Assembly (NCBI RefSeq): GCF_003018115.1
Contig: NZ_CP027457.1
Reading direction: 5' to 3' (one strand)
DNA length: 64,000 bases
Source: Escherichia coli
Lineage (GTDB): Bacteria; Pseudomonadota; Gammaproteobacteria; Enterobacterales; Enterobacteriaceae
Made by a program: the position numbers and the translations under genes. The notes below the pieces were generated by a model. It saw only the letters and a list, made by a program, of their open reading frames with translations. It had not been told where the DNA came from and ran no database searches. Positions 23,846 through 28,986 of the stretch are shown piece after piece (position 1 is the first letter of the stretch; each line of letters opens with the position of its first letter).

Positions 23846-24093
23846 TAACATTTATCTTAGTTATGATTTAAGTGCATGAAAATAATTGAGTTATATCATC
23901 ATAGATTAAACGCTGTTATCTGCAATTAAGACTTTACTGAAAAGAAATGTAACAACTGTGAAAACCGAATAATAATATGAAAATATTACAAATCTTTGTC
24001 TGTTGTGGTTGGTGTAATCGGTTTCAGTTGTGATGATAATTTGCGGTGAAACGTGATCAGGAAGAATGATGTTATTGTGCAGGCGGTTTTTTT

Positions 24094-24119
24094 GCCGGAT
24101 GCGGCGTGAACGCCTATCC
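24094..24119. repeat. Single REP unit
   Basis: gccggatgcggcgtgaacgcctatcc. Confidence 0.6.
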
Positions 24120-24130
24120 ACCGCGGTGAG

Positions 24131-24164
24131 GTAAAAGAAAAAGGCCAGCGCGAGGCTGGCCTTT
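24131..24164 (-). terminator. metK intrinsic terminator
   Basis: On minus strand: hairpin ggccagc-N5-gctggcc then U-tract, 20 bp after metK stop. Confidence 0.75.
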
Positions 24165-24183
24165 GAAAGCAGGTGAAGAAAGA

Positions 24184-25338
24184 TTACTTCAGACCGGCAG
24201 CATCGCGCAGCAGCTGCGCTTTGTCGGTTTTTTCCCACGGGAAATGTTCACGACCAAAGTGACCGTATGCTGCGGTTTCTTTGTAGATCGGGTGCAGCAG
24301 ATCCAGCATCTGAATCAGACCGTATGGGCGCAGGTCGAAGAACTCACGTACCAGCAGAGTCAGTTGTTCAGAAGGCACTTTCTCAGTACCGAAAGTTTCT
24401 ACCATGATGGAGGTCGGTTCAGCCACGCCGATTGCGTAGGAAACCTGAATTTCACAACGATCGGCCAGGCCAGCAGCAACGATGTTTTTCGCGACATAAC
24501 GTGCTGCGTAGGCTGCGGAACGGTCCACTTTTGATGGATCTTTACCAGAGAATGCTCCGCCACCGTGACGTGCCATGCCGCCGTAGGTATCAACGATAAT
24601 TTTACGACCAGTCAGACCGCAGTCACCCATCGGGCCACCGATAACAAAACGACCGGTCGGGTTGATGAAGAATTTGGTGGCAGAAGTCAGCCATTCAGCG
24701 GGCAGAATCGGCTTGATGATCTCTTCCATTACCGCTTCTTGCAGCGATTTCTGGTCGATCTCTTCAGAGTGCTGAGTGGAAAGCACGACAGCATCGATAC
24801 CAACGATTTTGCCGTCGTCATACTGGAAAGTCACCTGGCTTTTCGCGTCCGGGCGCAGCCACGGCAGAGTGCCGTTTTTACGCACTTCAGCCTGACGCTG
24901 TACCAGACGGTGTGCATAGGTGATAGGTGCTGGCATCAGCACGTCGGTTTCATTAGTTGCGTAGCCAAACATCAGACCCTGGTCACCCGCGCCCTGTTCC
25001 AGCGGATCGGCACGGTCAACGCCCTGGTTGATGTCAGGAGACTGTTTGCCGATAGCGCTCAGAACCGCACAGGAGTTAGCGTCAAAGCCCATGTCGGAAT
25101 GCACATAGCCAATTTCGCGAACGGTGTTACGGGTGATCTCTTCGATGTCTACCCAGGCGCTGGTGGTGATTTCGCCGCCAACTAAAACCATGCCGGTTTT
25201 TACGTAGGTTTCGCAAGCAACGCGTGCTTTCGGATCCTGTTCGAGGATCGCGTCTAAAACGGCATCAGAGATTTGGTCAGCAATTTTGTCAGGATGCCCT
25301 TCAGAGACGGACTCGGACGTAAAAAGGTGTTTTGCCAT
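24184..25338 (-). CDS. metK: S-adenosylmethionine synthetase
   Basis: ORF 24184..25350; start set at [18 protein letters not shown] (384 aa). Confidence 0.98.
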
Positions 25339-25378
25339 ATTTAATATCACCTAAAGAGAATTTGGTTAGCTCAAACTG

Positions 25379-25645
25379 TTGTGTGGATTTTCTGTGGTAG
25401 CGGATCCTACCACGACTCTGCAGGTTAAAAACACTGGCAGTCTGAGTGTTAATCGGTATGGATGGATTAACATCTGGATGGCTATTTTAGGTCAATTCTT
25501 CACCCGATTTCCACTTTTTTTTGAATCGTGTCTCATTCTGTTAAAAACGTGGCTGGAAATTTTTCCTGACAATGCCGGCATTCTGCGTATTTATCTTTTG
25601 CAATTTTCTGCCATTGTGGGGTATAAAACGCGGCGCGCGGCTTAA
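25379..25645 (+). CDS. Small hypothetical ORF in the metK upstream region (possibly yqgD-like); coding status doubtful
   Basis: 88-aa ORF, no recognisable domain; K-12 annotates small ORFs yqgC/yqgD here. Confidence 0.25.
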
Positions 25646-25857
25646 ATAAAAAGCACACGGCGTTTCTTTCGTGTTGCCACTTCCAGCCGGGTTGAAATCA
25701 GAGTTTTGGCTTGTGGGTTCGTCTTAACAGGCGGCCGTGGAGGTGATACGAAATAATGAACCGTTGTCTGCTGCTTAACCTGTCTCACCGTTCTGGTGAA
25801 GATTCGTTCCCCGCACTCTGCATCTCTGCTTTGCATACCTGCCGATGTTATACCCAT
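25642..25857 (-). CDS. Small hypothetical ORF (yqgC-like, 71 aa); coding status doubtful
   Basis: 71-aa ORF, same length as K-12 yqgC; no domain evidence. Confidence 0.3.
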
Positions 25858-25992
25858 CTCGGCGCTTCTCAGGATTCAAGAGCTGGTTACAGTTACTGAG
25901 GACTGAACAAGGGCGCTCTTGTAAAAACAAGAGTTTTCTCGTGGTTTCGCCGAACTGTCACACTTACGTTCGGTTATGTGCTTAATAATGTT

Positions 25993-26124
25993 ATGAAAAA
26001 GAAACCGGTTGCGCAGTTGGAGCGTCAGCATTCACTGCTGGAAAATCCATGTGCTTATGGGTTGTTATCGCAGTTCCAGGCTGCGATAGTCGTTAACTGT
26101 TTTACACTTAATAAAATAATTTGA
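25993..26124 (+). CDS. yqgB: Small protein YqgB (43 aa) immediately upstream of speA
   Basis: Translated by hand: [43 protein letters not shown]; below ORF-track size cutoff; stop 8 nt before speA ATG. Confidence 0.8.
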
Positions 26125-26132
26125 GGTTCGCT

Positions 26133-28109
26133 ATGTCTGACGACATGTCTATGGGTTTGCCTTCGTCAGCGGGCGAACACGGTGTACTACGCTCCATGCA
26201 GGAGGTTGCAATGAGCTCCCAGGAAGCCAGCAAGATGCTGCGTACTTACAATATTGCCTGGTGGGGCAATAACTACTATGACGTTAACGAGCTGGGCCAC
26301 ATCAGCGTGTGCCCGGACCCGGACGTCCCGGAAGCTCGCGTCGATCTCGCGCAGTTAGTGAAAACTCGTGAAGCACAGGGTCAGCGTCTGCCTGCACTGT
26401 TCTGTTTCCCACAGATCCTGCAGCACCGTTTGCGTTCCATTAACGCCGCGTTTAAACGTGCGCGGGAATCCTACGGCTATAACGGCGATTACTTCCTTGT
26501 TTATCCGATCAAAGTTAACCAGCACCGTCGCGTGATTGAGTCCCTGATTCATTCGGGCGAACCGCTGGGTCTGGAAGCCGGTTCCAAAGCCGAGTTGATG
26601 GCAGTGCTGGCACATGCTGGCATGACCCGTAGCGTCATCGTTTGCAACGGTTATAAAGACCGCGAATATATCCGCCTGGCATTAATTGGCGAGAAGATGG
26701 GGCACAAGGTCTATCTGGTCATTGAGAAGATGTCAGAAATCGCCATTGTGCTGGATGAAGCAGAACGTCTGAATGTCGTTCCTCGTCTGGGCGTGCGTGC
26801 ACGTCTGGCTTCGCAGGGCTCGGGTAAATGGCAGTCCTCCGGCGGGGAAAAATCGAAGTTCGGCCTGGCTGCGACTCAGGTACTGCAACTGGTTGAAACC
26901 CTGCGTGAAGCCGGGCGTCTCGACAGCCTGCAACTACTGCACTTCCACCTCGGTTCGCAGATGGCGAATATTCGCGATATCGCCACAGGCGTTCGTGAAT
27001 CGGCGCGTTTCTATGTGGAACTGCACAAGCTGGGCGTCAATATTCAGTGCTTCGACGTCGGCGGCGGTCTGGGCGTGGATTATGAAGGTACTCGTTCGCA
27101 GTCCGACTGTTCGGTAAACTACGGCCTCAATGAATATGCCAACAACATCATCTGGGCGATTGGTGATGCGTGTGAAGAAAACGGTCTGCCGCATCCGACG
27201 GTAATCACCGAATCGGGTCGTGCAGTGACTGCGCATCACACCGTGCTGGTGTCTAATATCATCGGCGTGGAACGTAACGAATACACGGTGCCGACCGCGC
27301 CTTCAGAAGATGCGCCGCGCGCGCTGCAAAGCATGTGGGAAACCTGGCAGGAGATGCACGAACCGGGAACTCGCCGTTCTCTGCGTGAATGGTTACACGA
27401 CAGTCAGATGGATCTGCACGACATTCATATCGGCTACTCTTCCGGCACCTTTAGCCTGCAAGAACGTGCATGGGCTGAGCAGCTTTATTTGAGCATGTGC
27501 CATGAAGTGCAAAAGCAGCTGGATCCGCAAAACCGTGCTCATCGTCCGATTATCGACGAGCTGCAGGAACGTATGGCGGACAAAATGTACGTCAACTTCT
27601 CGCTGTTCCAGTCGATGCCGGATGCGTGGGGGATCGACCAGTTGTTCCCGGTTCTGCCGCTGGAAGGGCTGGATCAAGTGCCGGAACGCCGCGCTGTGCT
27701 GCTGGATATTACCTGTGACTCTGACGGTGCTATCGACCACTATATCGATGGTGATGGTATTGCCACGACAATGCCTATGCCGGAGTACGATCCAGAGAAT
27801 CCGCCGATGCTCGGTTTCTTTATGGTCGGCGCATATCAGGAGATCCTCGGCAACATGCACAACCTGTTCGGTGATACCGAAGCGGTTGACGTGTTCGTCT
27901 TCCCTGACGGTAGTGTAGAAGTGGAACTGTCTGACGAAGGCGATACCGTGGCGGACATGCTGCAATATGTACAGCTCGATCCGAAAACGCTGTTAACTCA
28001 GTTCCGTGATCAAGTGAAGAAAACCGATCTTGATGCTGAACTGCAACAACAGTTCCTTGAAGAGTTCGAGGCAGGTTTGTACGGTTATACCTATCTTGAA
28101 GATGAATAA
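26133..28109 (+). CDS. speA: Biosynthetic arginine decarboxylase
   Basis: ORF 26121..28109; start set at [12 protein letters not shown] (658 aa); PLP-dependent decarboxylase. Confidence 0.96.
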
Positions 28110-28123
28110 TTAAGATTATTCTG

Positions 28124-28165
28124 CTGGCGGGTCGATTTATTTACGTAAATCGGTCCGCTTTCTTT
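28124..28165 (+). terminator. Candidate speA terminator
   Basis: Imperfect hairpin gcgggtcgattta-N6-taaatcggtccgc followed by tttcttttt. Confidence 0.5.
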
Positions 28166-28254
28166 TTATATATTCTTAAAAATAATTTAGCTGCTTTTCT
28201 TATTAAATAATCTCCCTACAATCGCTGCATTAATTAAATGCAGAGGGAACGGTT

Positions 28255-28986
28255 ATGAAAAAATGGAAAGTACGTAGCGCGTTGGTGGCATTAATCGTGC
28301 TGCTGGCCGGTTGTTCCAGTAATGCGCAGTATAATAGCAGTGCATCGGGCAATGTCGGCACCGCCTGGGGTGGGGATGTGCACTCAACGGTTCAGGGCGT
28401 ATCTGCTGAGCGAGCCTGGCGCGATCCGGCAGAGATGATCGTTATTAGTTATTCGACTAATGTTCCTTCCGGCTACGACCGCGTTTATAGCATTCGTATT
28501 AACGAACTGGAATATGCTATTCGCGATGGTAATTTTAATTCTCTACCTATTACGCGGGTTTATGATTCATCCAATAATGAACCACGCTATATTATCCATG
28601 CCAGAGTAGGAATGAATTATCAATTATATGTCCGCAATTACAGTCGTAACACCAACTACGAGATCGTTGCTACGGTTGATGGCCTGGATGTGCTGAACGG
28701 CAAGCAAGGTTCGCTGAATAACAACGGCTATATTGTGAATGCCGGAGATTCGTTAGCGATTAAAGGATTCCGCAAAGATAAACATACCGAAGCGGCTTTT
28801 CAGTTCGCCAACGTTGTTGATTCCTACGCAGCCAATTCGGCGCAAGGCGATATGCGTAATACCGGGGTAATCGGCTTTGCCGCCTTTGAATTACAAGGCC
28901 CGGCGCAAAACGCGCTGCCACCGTGCTCTGGACAAGCTTTTCCAGCAGATAACAATGGCTATGCGCCGCCACCGTGTCGGAAATAG
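28255..28986 (+). CDS. Orphan lipoprotein of unknown function
   Basis: 243-aa ORF with signal peptide and lipobox (LLAGC), Asn/Tyr/Ser-rich, two C-terminal Cys; own AT-rich upstream region and downstream terminator; no family recognised; not present between speA and speB in K-12 as I recall. Confidence 0.7.
   Translation: MKKWKVRSALVALIVLLAGCSSNAQYNSSASGNVGTAWGGDVHSTVQGVSAERAWRDPAEMIVISYSTNVPSGYDRVYSIRINELEYAIRDGNFNSLPITRVYDSSNNEPRYIIHARVGMNYQLYVRNYSRNTNYEIVATVDGLDVLNGKQGSLNNNGYIVNAGDSLAIKGFRKDKHTEAAFQFANVVDSYAANSAQGDMRNTGVIGFAAFELQGPAQNALPPCSGQAFPADNNGYAPPPCRK

Follow-up and report, generated by a model that had tools for sequence, protein, structure and literature searches.

The 794-bp spacer between metK and speA of Escherichia coli (25339-26132) is probably best explained as a control region with two sides, one carrying the metK promoter and the other a speA leader in which yqgB is coupled in cis to speA and yqgG encodes a leader peptide. 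This explanation joins documented features, namely the annotation, the transcript and its dependence on Rho, the patterns of conservation and the hairpins that covary, to two elements that we infer: coupling of yqgB to speA and any sensing by YqgG. All coordinates refer to the window, the 64,000-nucleotide stretch of E. coli chromosome that was analysed. The borders of the spacer and its annotated small ORFs are:

24184-25338, minus strand: metK coding sequence, methionine adenosyltransferase, left border (ORF list and RefSeq annotation; its ATG ends at 25338)
25394-25645, plus strand: yqgD, annotated 83-aa ORF from GTG 25394, with an earlier 88-aa ORF from TTG 25379 (25379-25645)
25642-25857, minus strand: yqgC, annotated 71-aa ORF, antisense to yqgG
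25756-25899, plus strand: yqgG, 47-aa upstream ORF annotated as b4784, with a C-terminal motif at codons 28-44 (25837-25887)
25993-26124, plus strand: yqgB, 43-aa upstream ORF annotated as b2939, ATG at 25993, stop UGA at 26122-26124 overlapping the speA Shine-Dalgarno GAGG
26133-28109, plus strand: speA, biosynthetic arginine decarboxylase, right border (ORF list and annotation; ATG 26133-26135)

A first-pass annotation of this DNA had described a spacer of about 790 bp with small ORFs, and all the features it stated are present in the sequence. The same locus is found in E. coli K-12 (speA-yqgB-yqgG-yqgC-yqgD-metK, b2938-b2942 and b4784), where gene order and coordinates correspond one-to-one and the spacer is without differences; a 243-aa gene between speA and speB in the present strain is absent from K-12. 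All four small ORFs and the long, Rho-attenuated speA leader are already known from the K-12 annotation or from publications. The first-pass annotation had missed yqgG, the transcribed speA leader and the type of conservation seen in yqgB (frame and stop position, not peptide). Of 5426 complete E. coli genomes, 5425 contain the spacer at an identity of at least 95%, and in 5380 of these 5425 the identity of the locus DNA reaches 99% or more. A scan of 24000-28500 with Rfam covariance models, at E values up to 1, gave no match inside 25339-26132.

Because the spacer contains 10 ORFs of at least 35 aa, ORFs the size of yqgC, yqgD, yqgB and yqgG are not beyond chance. We compared 78 distinct Enterobacteriaceae spacers, for which dN/dS was calculated pairwise and is not corrected for phylogeny. 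Start, frame and stop are kept for yqgB and yqgG in 49-50 of the 78 species and for the other eight ORFs in 2-23. Conservation is what sets yqgB and yqgG apart from the other ORFs in the spacer.

By contrast, yqgC is intact in 6/78 species and yqgD in 4/78, solely within Escherichia among these spacers, and both have stops elsewhere. Their dN/dS values are 0.87 and 0.94, and yqgD is without codon periodicity. Against Pfam and NCBIfam, yqgD gave no match; it overlies the metK and speA promoters. PGAP leaves yqgC uncalled in an identical genome, and the conserved N-terminus of yqgC mirrors the yqgG motif on the opposite strand. Weaver et al. (2019) saw no ribosome density on YqgC and did not find the tagged protein, and a literature search for translation of YqgD found no evidence. 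Thus, yqgC and yqgD are probably chance ORFs rather than genes, in agreement with earlier doubts about whether the two larger ORFs (71-88 aa) are coding. The same two ORFs had also been described as overlapping. They do overlap, convergently, by 4 nt, but the larger overlap is that of yqgC antisense to yqgG.

The spacer had been expected to carry the metK promoter, and the sequence of its left side fits this. Two features were located:

25439-25518, minus strand: metK promoter/operator block (promoter scan and per-base conservation; 80-96% identity across the 78 Enterobacteriaceae spacers)
25452-25483, no strand assigned: candidate MetJ operator, four tandem 8-bp met-box-like repeats in register (MetJ-box scan)

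The promoter scan found promoter-like hexamers in the conserved block, TGGAAA (25513-25508) and TAAAAT (25489-25484) separated by 18 nt, with TTGACC (25495-25490) as an alternative -35. The scan for MetJ boxes, proposed in the first-pass annotation, did return a MetJ-like array of four boxes, but its score is marginal: the best array has 18/32 matches to (AGACGTCT)x4, a score reached by 3.4% of shuffles (p about 0.03). The array sits in the most conserved stretch of the spacer. From the sequence alone, support for MetJ boxes is therefore marginal; metK is a known member of the MetJ regulon, with metboxes in 119 of 122 Enterobacteriales (PMC3228920). The left ~300 bp would serve metK, supplying its 5' UTR, the promoter block with its high conservation and the candidate array of met boxes for MetJ.

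The DNA to the right of about 25635 is a transcribed, structured speA leader and not promoter DNA. Its features are:

25598-25627, plus strand: putative speA-leader promoter, -35 TTGCAA (25598-25603), 18-nt spacer and -10 TATAAA (25622-25627), followed by a GC-rich discriminator
25635-26132, plus strand: speA leader RNA of 498 nt carrying yqgG and yqgB (5' end from the forward primer GCGCGGCTTAAATAAAAAGC of the speA 5' UTR fusion of Adams et al.)

Adams et al. (2021) describe a yqgG-yqgB-speAB transcript, the 5' end of its leader and Rho-dependent premature termination. The supplement entries place a Rho-dependent 3' end 57 nt into the speA ORF (26190 in the window) and a Term-seq 3' end at 25749. 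TTGCAA/TATAAA is likely to be the promoter of this leader. The -10 and the discriminator are near-invariant in the 78 species, and the -10 ends 8 nt upstream of the 5' end that Adams et al. used for their "entire 5' UTR" fusion. A sigma-70 scan passed over the speA promoter, as the tool demands a T at the end of the -10 and TATAAA has none there.

The first-pass annotation had placed a 43-aa yqgB 8 nt before the speA ATG, and this is where it ends (gap 26125-26132). YqgB matches PF11036 over its full length at 113 bits (cut-off 24) and the equivalog NF033844 at 90 bits (cut-off 35). All 78 species retain the ATG and have an open frame, while each of the other five frames has stops in 56-78 of the 78. 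Lack of a translation signal together with lack of a conserved frame in relatives had been named as what would count against yqgB; with the frame open in every species, we regard yqgB as real. In 58 species the stop is a TGA ending 8 nt before the speA ATG, and in the other 20 it is the TGA in ATGTCTGA, 8 nt into speA. Species in which insertions have extended the ORF to 55-91 aa keep this position too. In two distant lineages, in which SpeA is about 85% identical, unrelated uORFs of 24-25 aa likewise end at the speA start. A stop within a few nt of the speA start, which is what coupling would need, is thus conserved in 78/78 species despite indels and in both distant loci. We also looked for selection on the YqgB peptide and did not find it: dN/dS is 0.89 in frame versus 0.83 and 0.64 out of frame, there is no codon periodicity, and the invariant YqgB "motifs" coincide with the arms of RNA helices. 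What is conserved in yqgB is its frame and stop position, not its peptide. These data suggest that yqgB is a uORF for cis translational coupling to speA.

An unlikely alternative is that YqgB and YqgG are ordinary small proteins acting in trans, YqgB in acid stress, that share an operon with speAB and whose position has no regulatory meaning. Both are annotated with Pfam families, YqgB is detectable as a protein, and its NCBI name is "acid stress response protein". Its start codon was detected in vitro by INRI-seq and went undetected by in vivo Ribo-RET. Deletion phenotypes and binding of ranitidine to YqgB by SPR have been reported, and overproduced YqgB leads to a heat-shock response. However, the YqgB peptide shows no selection beyond conservation at the nucleotide level, and the stop stays in position despite insertions, and also where the lineage has an unrelated peptide. 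In Salmonella, moreover, deletion of yqgB decreases speA and speB mRNA and enzyme levels, and its effect on colistin killing is reversed by putrescine or spermidine; complementation was not reported. The phenotypes may therefore be cis effects.

This alternative is stronger for YqgG, where the C-terminus is under peptide selection, than for YqgB. YqgG matches PF23505 over residues 1-47 (130 bits, cut-off 27, E 3e-38), and the tagged protein, YqgG-SPA, has been detected (Weaver 2019). Its frame is the only one open in 78/78 species. Over codons 28-44, dN/dS is 0.24 in frame versus 1.0 and 4.3 out of frame, and the 17-residue C-terminal motif is under purifying selection at the amino-acid level. 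Synonymous codon switching is seen at D40, S41, R42, A43 and G44, with AGA, AGG, CGG and CGA at Arg42 and TCA, TCC and TCG at Ser41. At both conserved arginines the codon is always a rare one. A long-range RNA helix, and not the peptide, could account for part of the third-position pattern. Distant loci with a SpeA of 85% identity still carry the motif. All matches of word-indexed protein searches with YqgG and YqgB were close relatives within the Enterobacteriaceae, and a profile search of representatives reached slightly further. In most species the yqgG ORF is 44-51 aa long, with 0-7 variable residues between RAG and the stop; this spacing differs from that of arrest peptides that stall at a fixed stop. 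In SecM-like arrest, a "RAG" motif is followed by proline. We considered such a motif in YqgG and rejected it, as the residue after RAG is variable and not proline. YqgG is possibly a sensory upstream leader peptide, judging from these patterns.

The structure of the leader was predicted with RNAalifold and pair counts on 47 sequences, and folding energies were expressed as z scores. Compensatory changes occur at 19 leader pairs, compared with a shuffle mean of 14.2 (0/500 shuffles reach 19) and with 6-12 in slid controls, and six hairpins are backed by covariation. The main elements are:

25653-25677, plus strand: 5' leader hairpin (helix 2), 2 pairs with compensatory changes, G-C to A-U in 11 sequences
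25678-25745, plus strand: predicted anti-SD CACUUCCA (25678-25685) paired with the yqgG Shine-Dalgarno UGGAGGUG (25738-25745), from RNAalifold and pair counts
25785-25799, plus strand: hairpin UCACC/GGUGA in the 5' half of yqgG (helix 6), compensatory changes at 4/5 pairs
25916-25944, plus strand: terminator-like hairpin CUCUUG/CAAGAG (25916-25933) followed by an invariant UUUUCUCGUGG (terminator scan)
25950-25973, plus strand: hairpin CCGAAC/GUUCGG between yqgG and yqgB (helix 10), compensatory changes at 3/6 pairs
26003-26089, plus strand: structured yqgB core (helices 11-14) including the invariant hairpin UUAUCGC/GCGAUAG (26065-26089), -37.8 kcal/mol, z -2.9
26126-26178, plus strand: predicted hairpin burying the speA start codon, GUUCGCUAUGUCUGACGA with UCGUCAGCGGGCGAAC (speA codons 11-16), 16 pairs, 99% paired in 47 sequences

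The 8-bp anti-SD:SD helix is invariant in 47/47 sequences and hence beyond a covariation test; the Term-seq 3' end at 25749 lies directly after it. The hairpin that it encloses (25716-25736) has compensatory changes at 6/8 pairs. In the yqgB core, compensatory changes occur in helix 12, no variation is seen in helix 14, and the arms of helices 11-14 encode the "conserved" YqgB motifs. The predicted hairpin at the speA start (-21.2 kcal/mol) has a z of only -1.4, and its invariance means that covariation provides no test. It was rejected as a universal feature, being absent from the two distant loci. Two long-range helices, one between the 5' end and yqgG codons 42-44 and one between the U-tract and speA codons 21-25, were predicted with one-sided changes only and are kept as possibilities.

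These elements raise the question of classical attenuation, in which translation of yqgG would choose between a terminator, formed by the 25916-25944 hairpin and the U-tract, and an antiterminator. The hairpin and its U-run lie 17 nt past the yqgG stop, the hairpin is stable (-13 kcal/mol, z -3.5) with a U-A to C-G compensatory change in 13/47 sequences, and the rarity of both conserved Arg codons of yqgG would also suit such a mechanism. In E. coli, the 5' arm GCUCUUG has its complement, CAAGAGC, within yqgG codons 41-43. This antiterminator was rejected since the pairing is not conserved: it is lost in most genera, and CCAGGGC or CCCGGGC stands there in other genera while the hairpin shows no corresponding change. 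No more than 3 pairs of the stem are G-C, and termination in the leader is reported as Rho-dependent. In the supplement entries of Adams et al. examined for this region, the Term-seq 3' ends fall at 25749 and 26190, and none lies at the hairpin, near 25940. Together, these points make attenuation of the classical type quite unlikely.

It is less likely still, and in our view improbable, that the functional parts are RNA and DNA elements alone (promoters, operators, hairpins and Rho sites) with the small ORFs incidental to them. Most of the conserved blocks of yqgB do coincide with helix arms, the N-terminal half of yqgG has no peptide-level constraint and holds a covarying hairpin, and third positions are invariant in much of the yqgG motif. 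However, this reading does not fit the stop-free yqgB frame in every species or the poor retention of the eight control ORFs. The alternation of AGR and CGR codons at Arg42 of yqgG, the survival of the motif through many synonymous changes in distant loci and the translation seen experimentally also argue against it.

We return to the explanation that we favour, a metK promoter beside a speA leader with cis coupling through yqgB. The speA leader would start at about 25635, downstream of TTGCAA/TATAAA, and would be translated at two upstream ORFs. The Shine-Dalgarno of yqgG would be paired to the conserved anti-SD. YqgG would most likely act by making ribosomes pause, with arginine or polyamines as a possible signal, and this pausing would set the share of the leader that is read through to yqgB-speA. 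Under this model yqgB is mainly a cis coupling ORF. Ribosomes that terminate at the yqgB UGA would occupy the Shine-Dalgarno and AUG of speA, unfold the local hairpin and hand translation over to speA. Where speA is left untranslated, Rho would halt transcription about 57 nt into the gene.

As a comparison, in SecM-secA and in classical coupling at a start-site hairpin, a ribosome that has reached the 3' end of the first ORF covers a structure that hides the downstream start, and the secM effect needs a defined arrest sequence. With yqgB, too, stop and start lie within a few nt, but its peptide seems irrelevant and the hairpin is a predicted one. The mgtCBR operon of Salmonella has a long structured leader with the short ORFs mgtM and mgtP. 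It resembles the speA leader only in architecture, with two short translated ORFs ahead of the operon, and differs from it in operon, signals and sequences. SpeFL-speF is a leader with an ornithine-sensing arrest peptide. Both SpeFL, or orf34-speF in Salmonella (PMC6386406), and YqgG are leader peptides upstream of a decarboxylase of polyamine biosynthesis, with a conserved C-terminal region and Rho involvement. However, they have no sequence similarity, the YqgG motif lies at a varying distance of 0-7 residues from the stop, and for YqgG both stalling and a ligand are putative. Adams et al. (2021) describe MdtU-mdtJI among several leaders that combine a uORF with Rho and list yqgB-speA as an uncharacterised candidate. 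Like the speA leader, mdtJI has a translated uORF in the long 5' UTR of a polyamine-related operon and Rho-dependent premature termination. Spermidine dependence and a need for uORF translation have been shown for mdtU, and there is one uORF there compared with two in the speA leader.

A more specific version, which we put forward tentatively and consider possible rather than probable, is that the speA leader is a two-stage translational relay. In this relay YqgG would be a metabolite- or tRNA-sensing peptide (responding to arginine, to agmatine or to polyamines), the part of yqgB would be that of a coupling ORF, independent of its sequence, which delivers ribosomes to speA and in this way shields it from Rho, and the "acid stress" and colistin phenotypes would be cis effects on speAB.

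The comparison across species gives a clear verdict against treating yqgC and yqgD as genes. It also provides a testable idea about the control of arginine decarboxylase, with which one of the pathways to putrescine begins. If the relay is correct, the "acid stress" and colistin phenotypes now credited to the YqgB protein would have to be reassigned to speAB. The published yqgB deletion phenotypes, on which the case for YqgB as a drug target now draws, may simply reflect lost speAB expression.

The interval between metK and speA measures 794 bp (25339-26132), in agreement with the roughly 790 bp of the first-pass annotation. The sequence and the ORF list place the ATG of metK (minus strand) with its end at 25338 and that of speA (plus strand) at 26133. 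The window is E. coli chromosomal DNA. The interval has a match at 95% identity or more in 5425 of 5426 complete E. coli genomes, several of them at 100%, and the locus has been described and annotated before. The small-gene coordinates below were transferred to the window from two RefSeq annotations, that of K-12 MG1655 and that of an identical strain.

25394-25645, plus strand: yqgD, 83 aa, GTG start
25642-25857, minus strand: yqgC, 71 aa, annotated in K-12 only
25756-25899, plus strand: yqgG, 47 aa
25993-26124, plus strand: yqgB, 43 aa

The first-pass annotation rightly had the 43-aa yqgB ending 8 nt before the speA ATG (stop codon 26122-26124). It also described two overlapping ORFs of 71-88 aa; both are present, the 88-aa one beginning at TTG 25379, but they are convergent and share only 4 nt. 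Absent from its list was yqgG, which overlaps yqgC antisense. The observation is confirmed, and the interpretation was sound but incomplete. The Pfam families named after YqgB, YqgG and YqgC are each matched by the respective protein; YqgD had no match in Pfam or NCBIfam searches.

For comparison, we searched with the first 200 residues of SpeA and retrieved 80 loci of different Enterobacteriaceae species. Spacers were taken where metK and speA were both present, giving 78 distinct spacers of 633-1039 bp that were then aligned. The whole spacer is unusually conserved, with 50-96% identity per 20-nt bin. Start, frame and stop were all kept in 4 species for yqgD and in 6 for yqgC, all of them Escherichia, and outside this genus both frames are full of stops. 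Strict conservation was found in 50 species for yqgG, 58 for the annotated yqgB and 49 for a 48-aa GTG-start ORF that encloses it (25978-26124); six other spacer ORFs of at least 35 aa, used as a control, were kept in 2-23. In the work of Weaver et al. (2019), tagged YqgG was detected; YqgC showed no ribosome density, and its tagged form was not detected. The species comparison bears out earlier doubts about the two larger ORFs and speaks against yqgC and yqgD being genes.

When read through to its actual stop, the yqgB frame is open in all 78 species with its ATG conserved. Only two TGAs serve as its stop: one ending 8 nt before the speA ATG (58 species) and the other within ATGTCTGA, ending 8 nt into speA (20 species). 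The pattern persists despite insertions of 20 to ~130 nt, which lengthen the ORF to 55-91 aa; the five other frames across yqgB have stops in 56-78 species. The dN/dS of yqgB (pairwise Nei-Gojobori, uncorrected for shared ancestry) was 0.89 in its own frame versus 0.83 and 0.64 when the frame is shifted, and diversity was flat over codon positions, so the peptide shows no constraint in addition to that at the nucleotide level. The apparent peptide motifs, in which none of the three codon positions varies, overlie predicted RNA helix arms. In two distant lineages, unrelated short ORFs end at the speA start (UGAUG overlap; ATGTCTGA). These data argue that yqgB acts mainly in cis. Its start codon was seen by INRI-seq in vitro, where in vivo Ribo-RET had not seen it, and yqgB-speA is among the uncharacterised uORF candidates listed by Adams et al. 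(2021).

In several species the leader has taken up inserts of 116-137 nt that may be repeat-type elements. Insertions lie just past the leader 5' end in loci L013 and L030 and in the yqgB 3' end in L030, L056 and L079, where the frame stays open to the speA start. In the Citrobacter loci L012 and L017, an insertion within yqgG removes the conserved C-terminus, giving a product of 55 aa.

The forward primer with which Adams et al. (2021) cloned the 'entire 5' UTR' of speA starts at 25635, which implies a leader of 498 nt. They reported a probable yqgG-yqgB-speAB transcript and Rho-dependent premature termination, backed by lacZ fusions and northern blots. Among their Term-seq entries that we examined, one 3' end is at 26190, 57 nt into speA (flagged 'uORF'), and a second at 25749 (K-12 3086295). 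The leader was analysed with RNAalifold and explicit pair counts on 47 sequences without large insertions. Pairing was retained in 97.5% of cells versus 35-45% with slid partners. Compensatory changes occur in 19 pairs; slid controls gave 6-12 and shuffles 14.2 on average, with none of the 500 shuffles reaching 19. Covariation backs the first six helices below; the last three are invariant, so covariation neither supports nor refutes them. All are on the plus strand, as is the putative promoter upstream of 25635.

25598-25627, putative speA promoter: TTGCAA (25598-25603), 18-nt spacer, TATAAA (25622-25627), GC-rich discriminator
25653-25677, 5' hairpin
25716-25736, hairpin just upstream of the yqgG Shine-Dalgarno (SD)
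25785-25799, hairpin within yqgG
25916-25944, terminator-like hairpin with U-run
25950-25973, hairpin
5' part of yqgB, helix
25678-25685 with 25738-45, predicted: anti-SD CACUUCCA paired with the yqgG SD UGGAGGUG
26065-26089, predicted hairpin in yqgB
26126-26178, predicted 16-bp hairpin burying the speA start codon

The speA-start hairpin has a folding energy of -21.2 kcal/mol with a z-score of only -1.4, and was not found in two distant loci that were folded. Inside speA (26200-26213, plus strand), a strong SD, AGGAGG, precedes by 5 nt an in-frame ATG at codon 27, a published internal start that yields a cytoplasmic isoform shorter by 26 residues; in the RNAalifold model the invariant U-tract of the leader (25934-25944) pairs with this SD, through many G-U pairs and with no covariation. 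The 3' end at 25749 lies 4 nt past the anti-SD helix and suggests a stable 5' fragment of ~115 nt from the leader.

The -10 and discriminator on the speA side are nearly invariant between genera. On the other side, a block at 25439-25518 is 80-96% identical among the 78 spacers and contains promoter-like hexamers, in keeping with the claim that the region carries the metK promoter. metK is an established MetJ regulon member, with metboxes in 119 of 122 Enterobacteriales; the best four-box array here (25452-25483) has 18/32 matches, and 3.4% of shuffles score at least as high. Beyond metK, naRNA4 (E 0.63) and a Brucella sRNA (E 0.15) from Rfam match the galP-metK spacer (24060-24166) weakly and below threshold; a REP-type repeat or chance is the likeliest cause. 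Between speA and speB, a 243-aa ORF (28255-28986, plus strand) labelled 'hypothetical protein' has a lipoprotein-type signal (MKKWKVRSALVALIVLLAGCSS...) and no convincing match in Pfam or NCBIfam; K-12 lacks it, and about 3550 of 5426 complete E. coli genomes have it.

The N-terminal 27 codons of yqgG, which hold a covarying hairpin, behave as non-coding sequence. Over codons 28-44, pairwise dN/dS (uncorrected for shared ancestry) was 0.24 in frame versus 1.00 and 4.30 out of frame, and its own frame is the sole one open in all 78 species. Frequent variants in this stretch are mainly synonymous (Asp40 GAT/GAC; Ser41 TCA/TCC/TCG; Arg42 AGA/AGG/CGG/CGA; Ala43 GCT/GCC; Gly44 GGT/GGC). A profile search over 1.84 billion representative proteins gave 19 relatives; the three most divergent ones checked lie between metK and speA (SpeA 85-93% identical to that of E. 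coli) and retain RCY(T/P)(H/P)xGA(S/T)QDSRAG despite many synonymous differences. The fourfold sites of Ala43 and Gly44 are pyrimidines in 77 and 76 species, and synonymous variation at codons 42-44 consists only of transitions retaining G-C, G-U or A-U pairs. The pyrimidine-only sites would also fit a predicted long-range helix of 25635-25643 with 25880-25887, which joins the first nine leader bases to these codons. The conserved arginines are limited to four rare codons, Arg30 (25843-25845) being CGA in 78/78 and Arg42 (25879-25881) AGA, AGG, CGG or CGA, never CGT or CGC; non-conserved N-terminal arginines are mostly CGT. Three database proteins of 115-152 aa (P0040, P0046, P0052) are gene calls joining YqgG, the downstream leader and YqgB; frameshift variants or errors of sequencing in genomes resembling Klebsiella or Salmonella presumably account for them.

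One possible reading of the leader is classical attenuation through the terminator-like hairpin at 25916-25944. This is weakened because the E. coli antiterminator pairing is not conserved and no 3' end occurs at the hairpin among the Term-seq entries examined. A stall at the stop codon, as in TnaC or SpeFL, is disfavoured for YqgG since the distance from motif to stop is variable. The best-supported part of our model, from sequence comparison, is that yqgB would be kept because a ribosome must terminate beside the start codon of speA: the stop keeps its position, the peptide sequence varies and insertions occur only with an open frame. With the yqgB stop at the speA start and a Rho-dependent 3' end 57 nt into speA, the data fit translational coupling that may shield speA from Rho.

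In a 2026 Salmonella study (PMC13159126), yqgB deletion lowered speA and speB mRNA and enzyme levels, and added putrescine or spermidine reduced colistin killing of the mutant. YqgB was proposed as a drug target on the basis of that deletion, which was reported with no complementation and no polarity control or discussion; the deleted yqgB sits in the speA leader, 8 nt from the speA start. Coupling between yqgB and speA would explain the lower speAB expression. The C-terminal peptide of YqgG is selected, and its start site is sequestered in the predicted structure. A pausing or sensing role is hypothetical; the species comparison marks YqgG as a candidate regulatory leader peptide.
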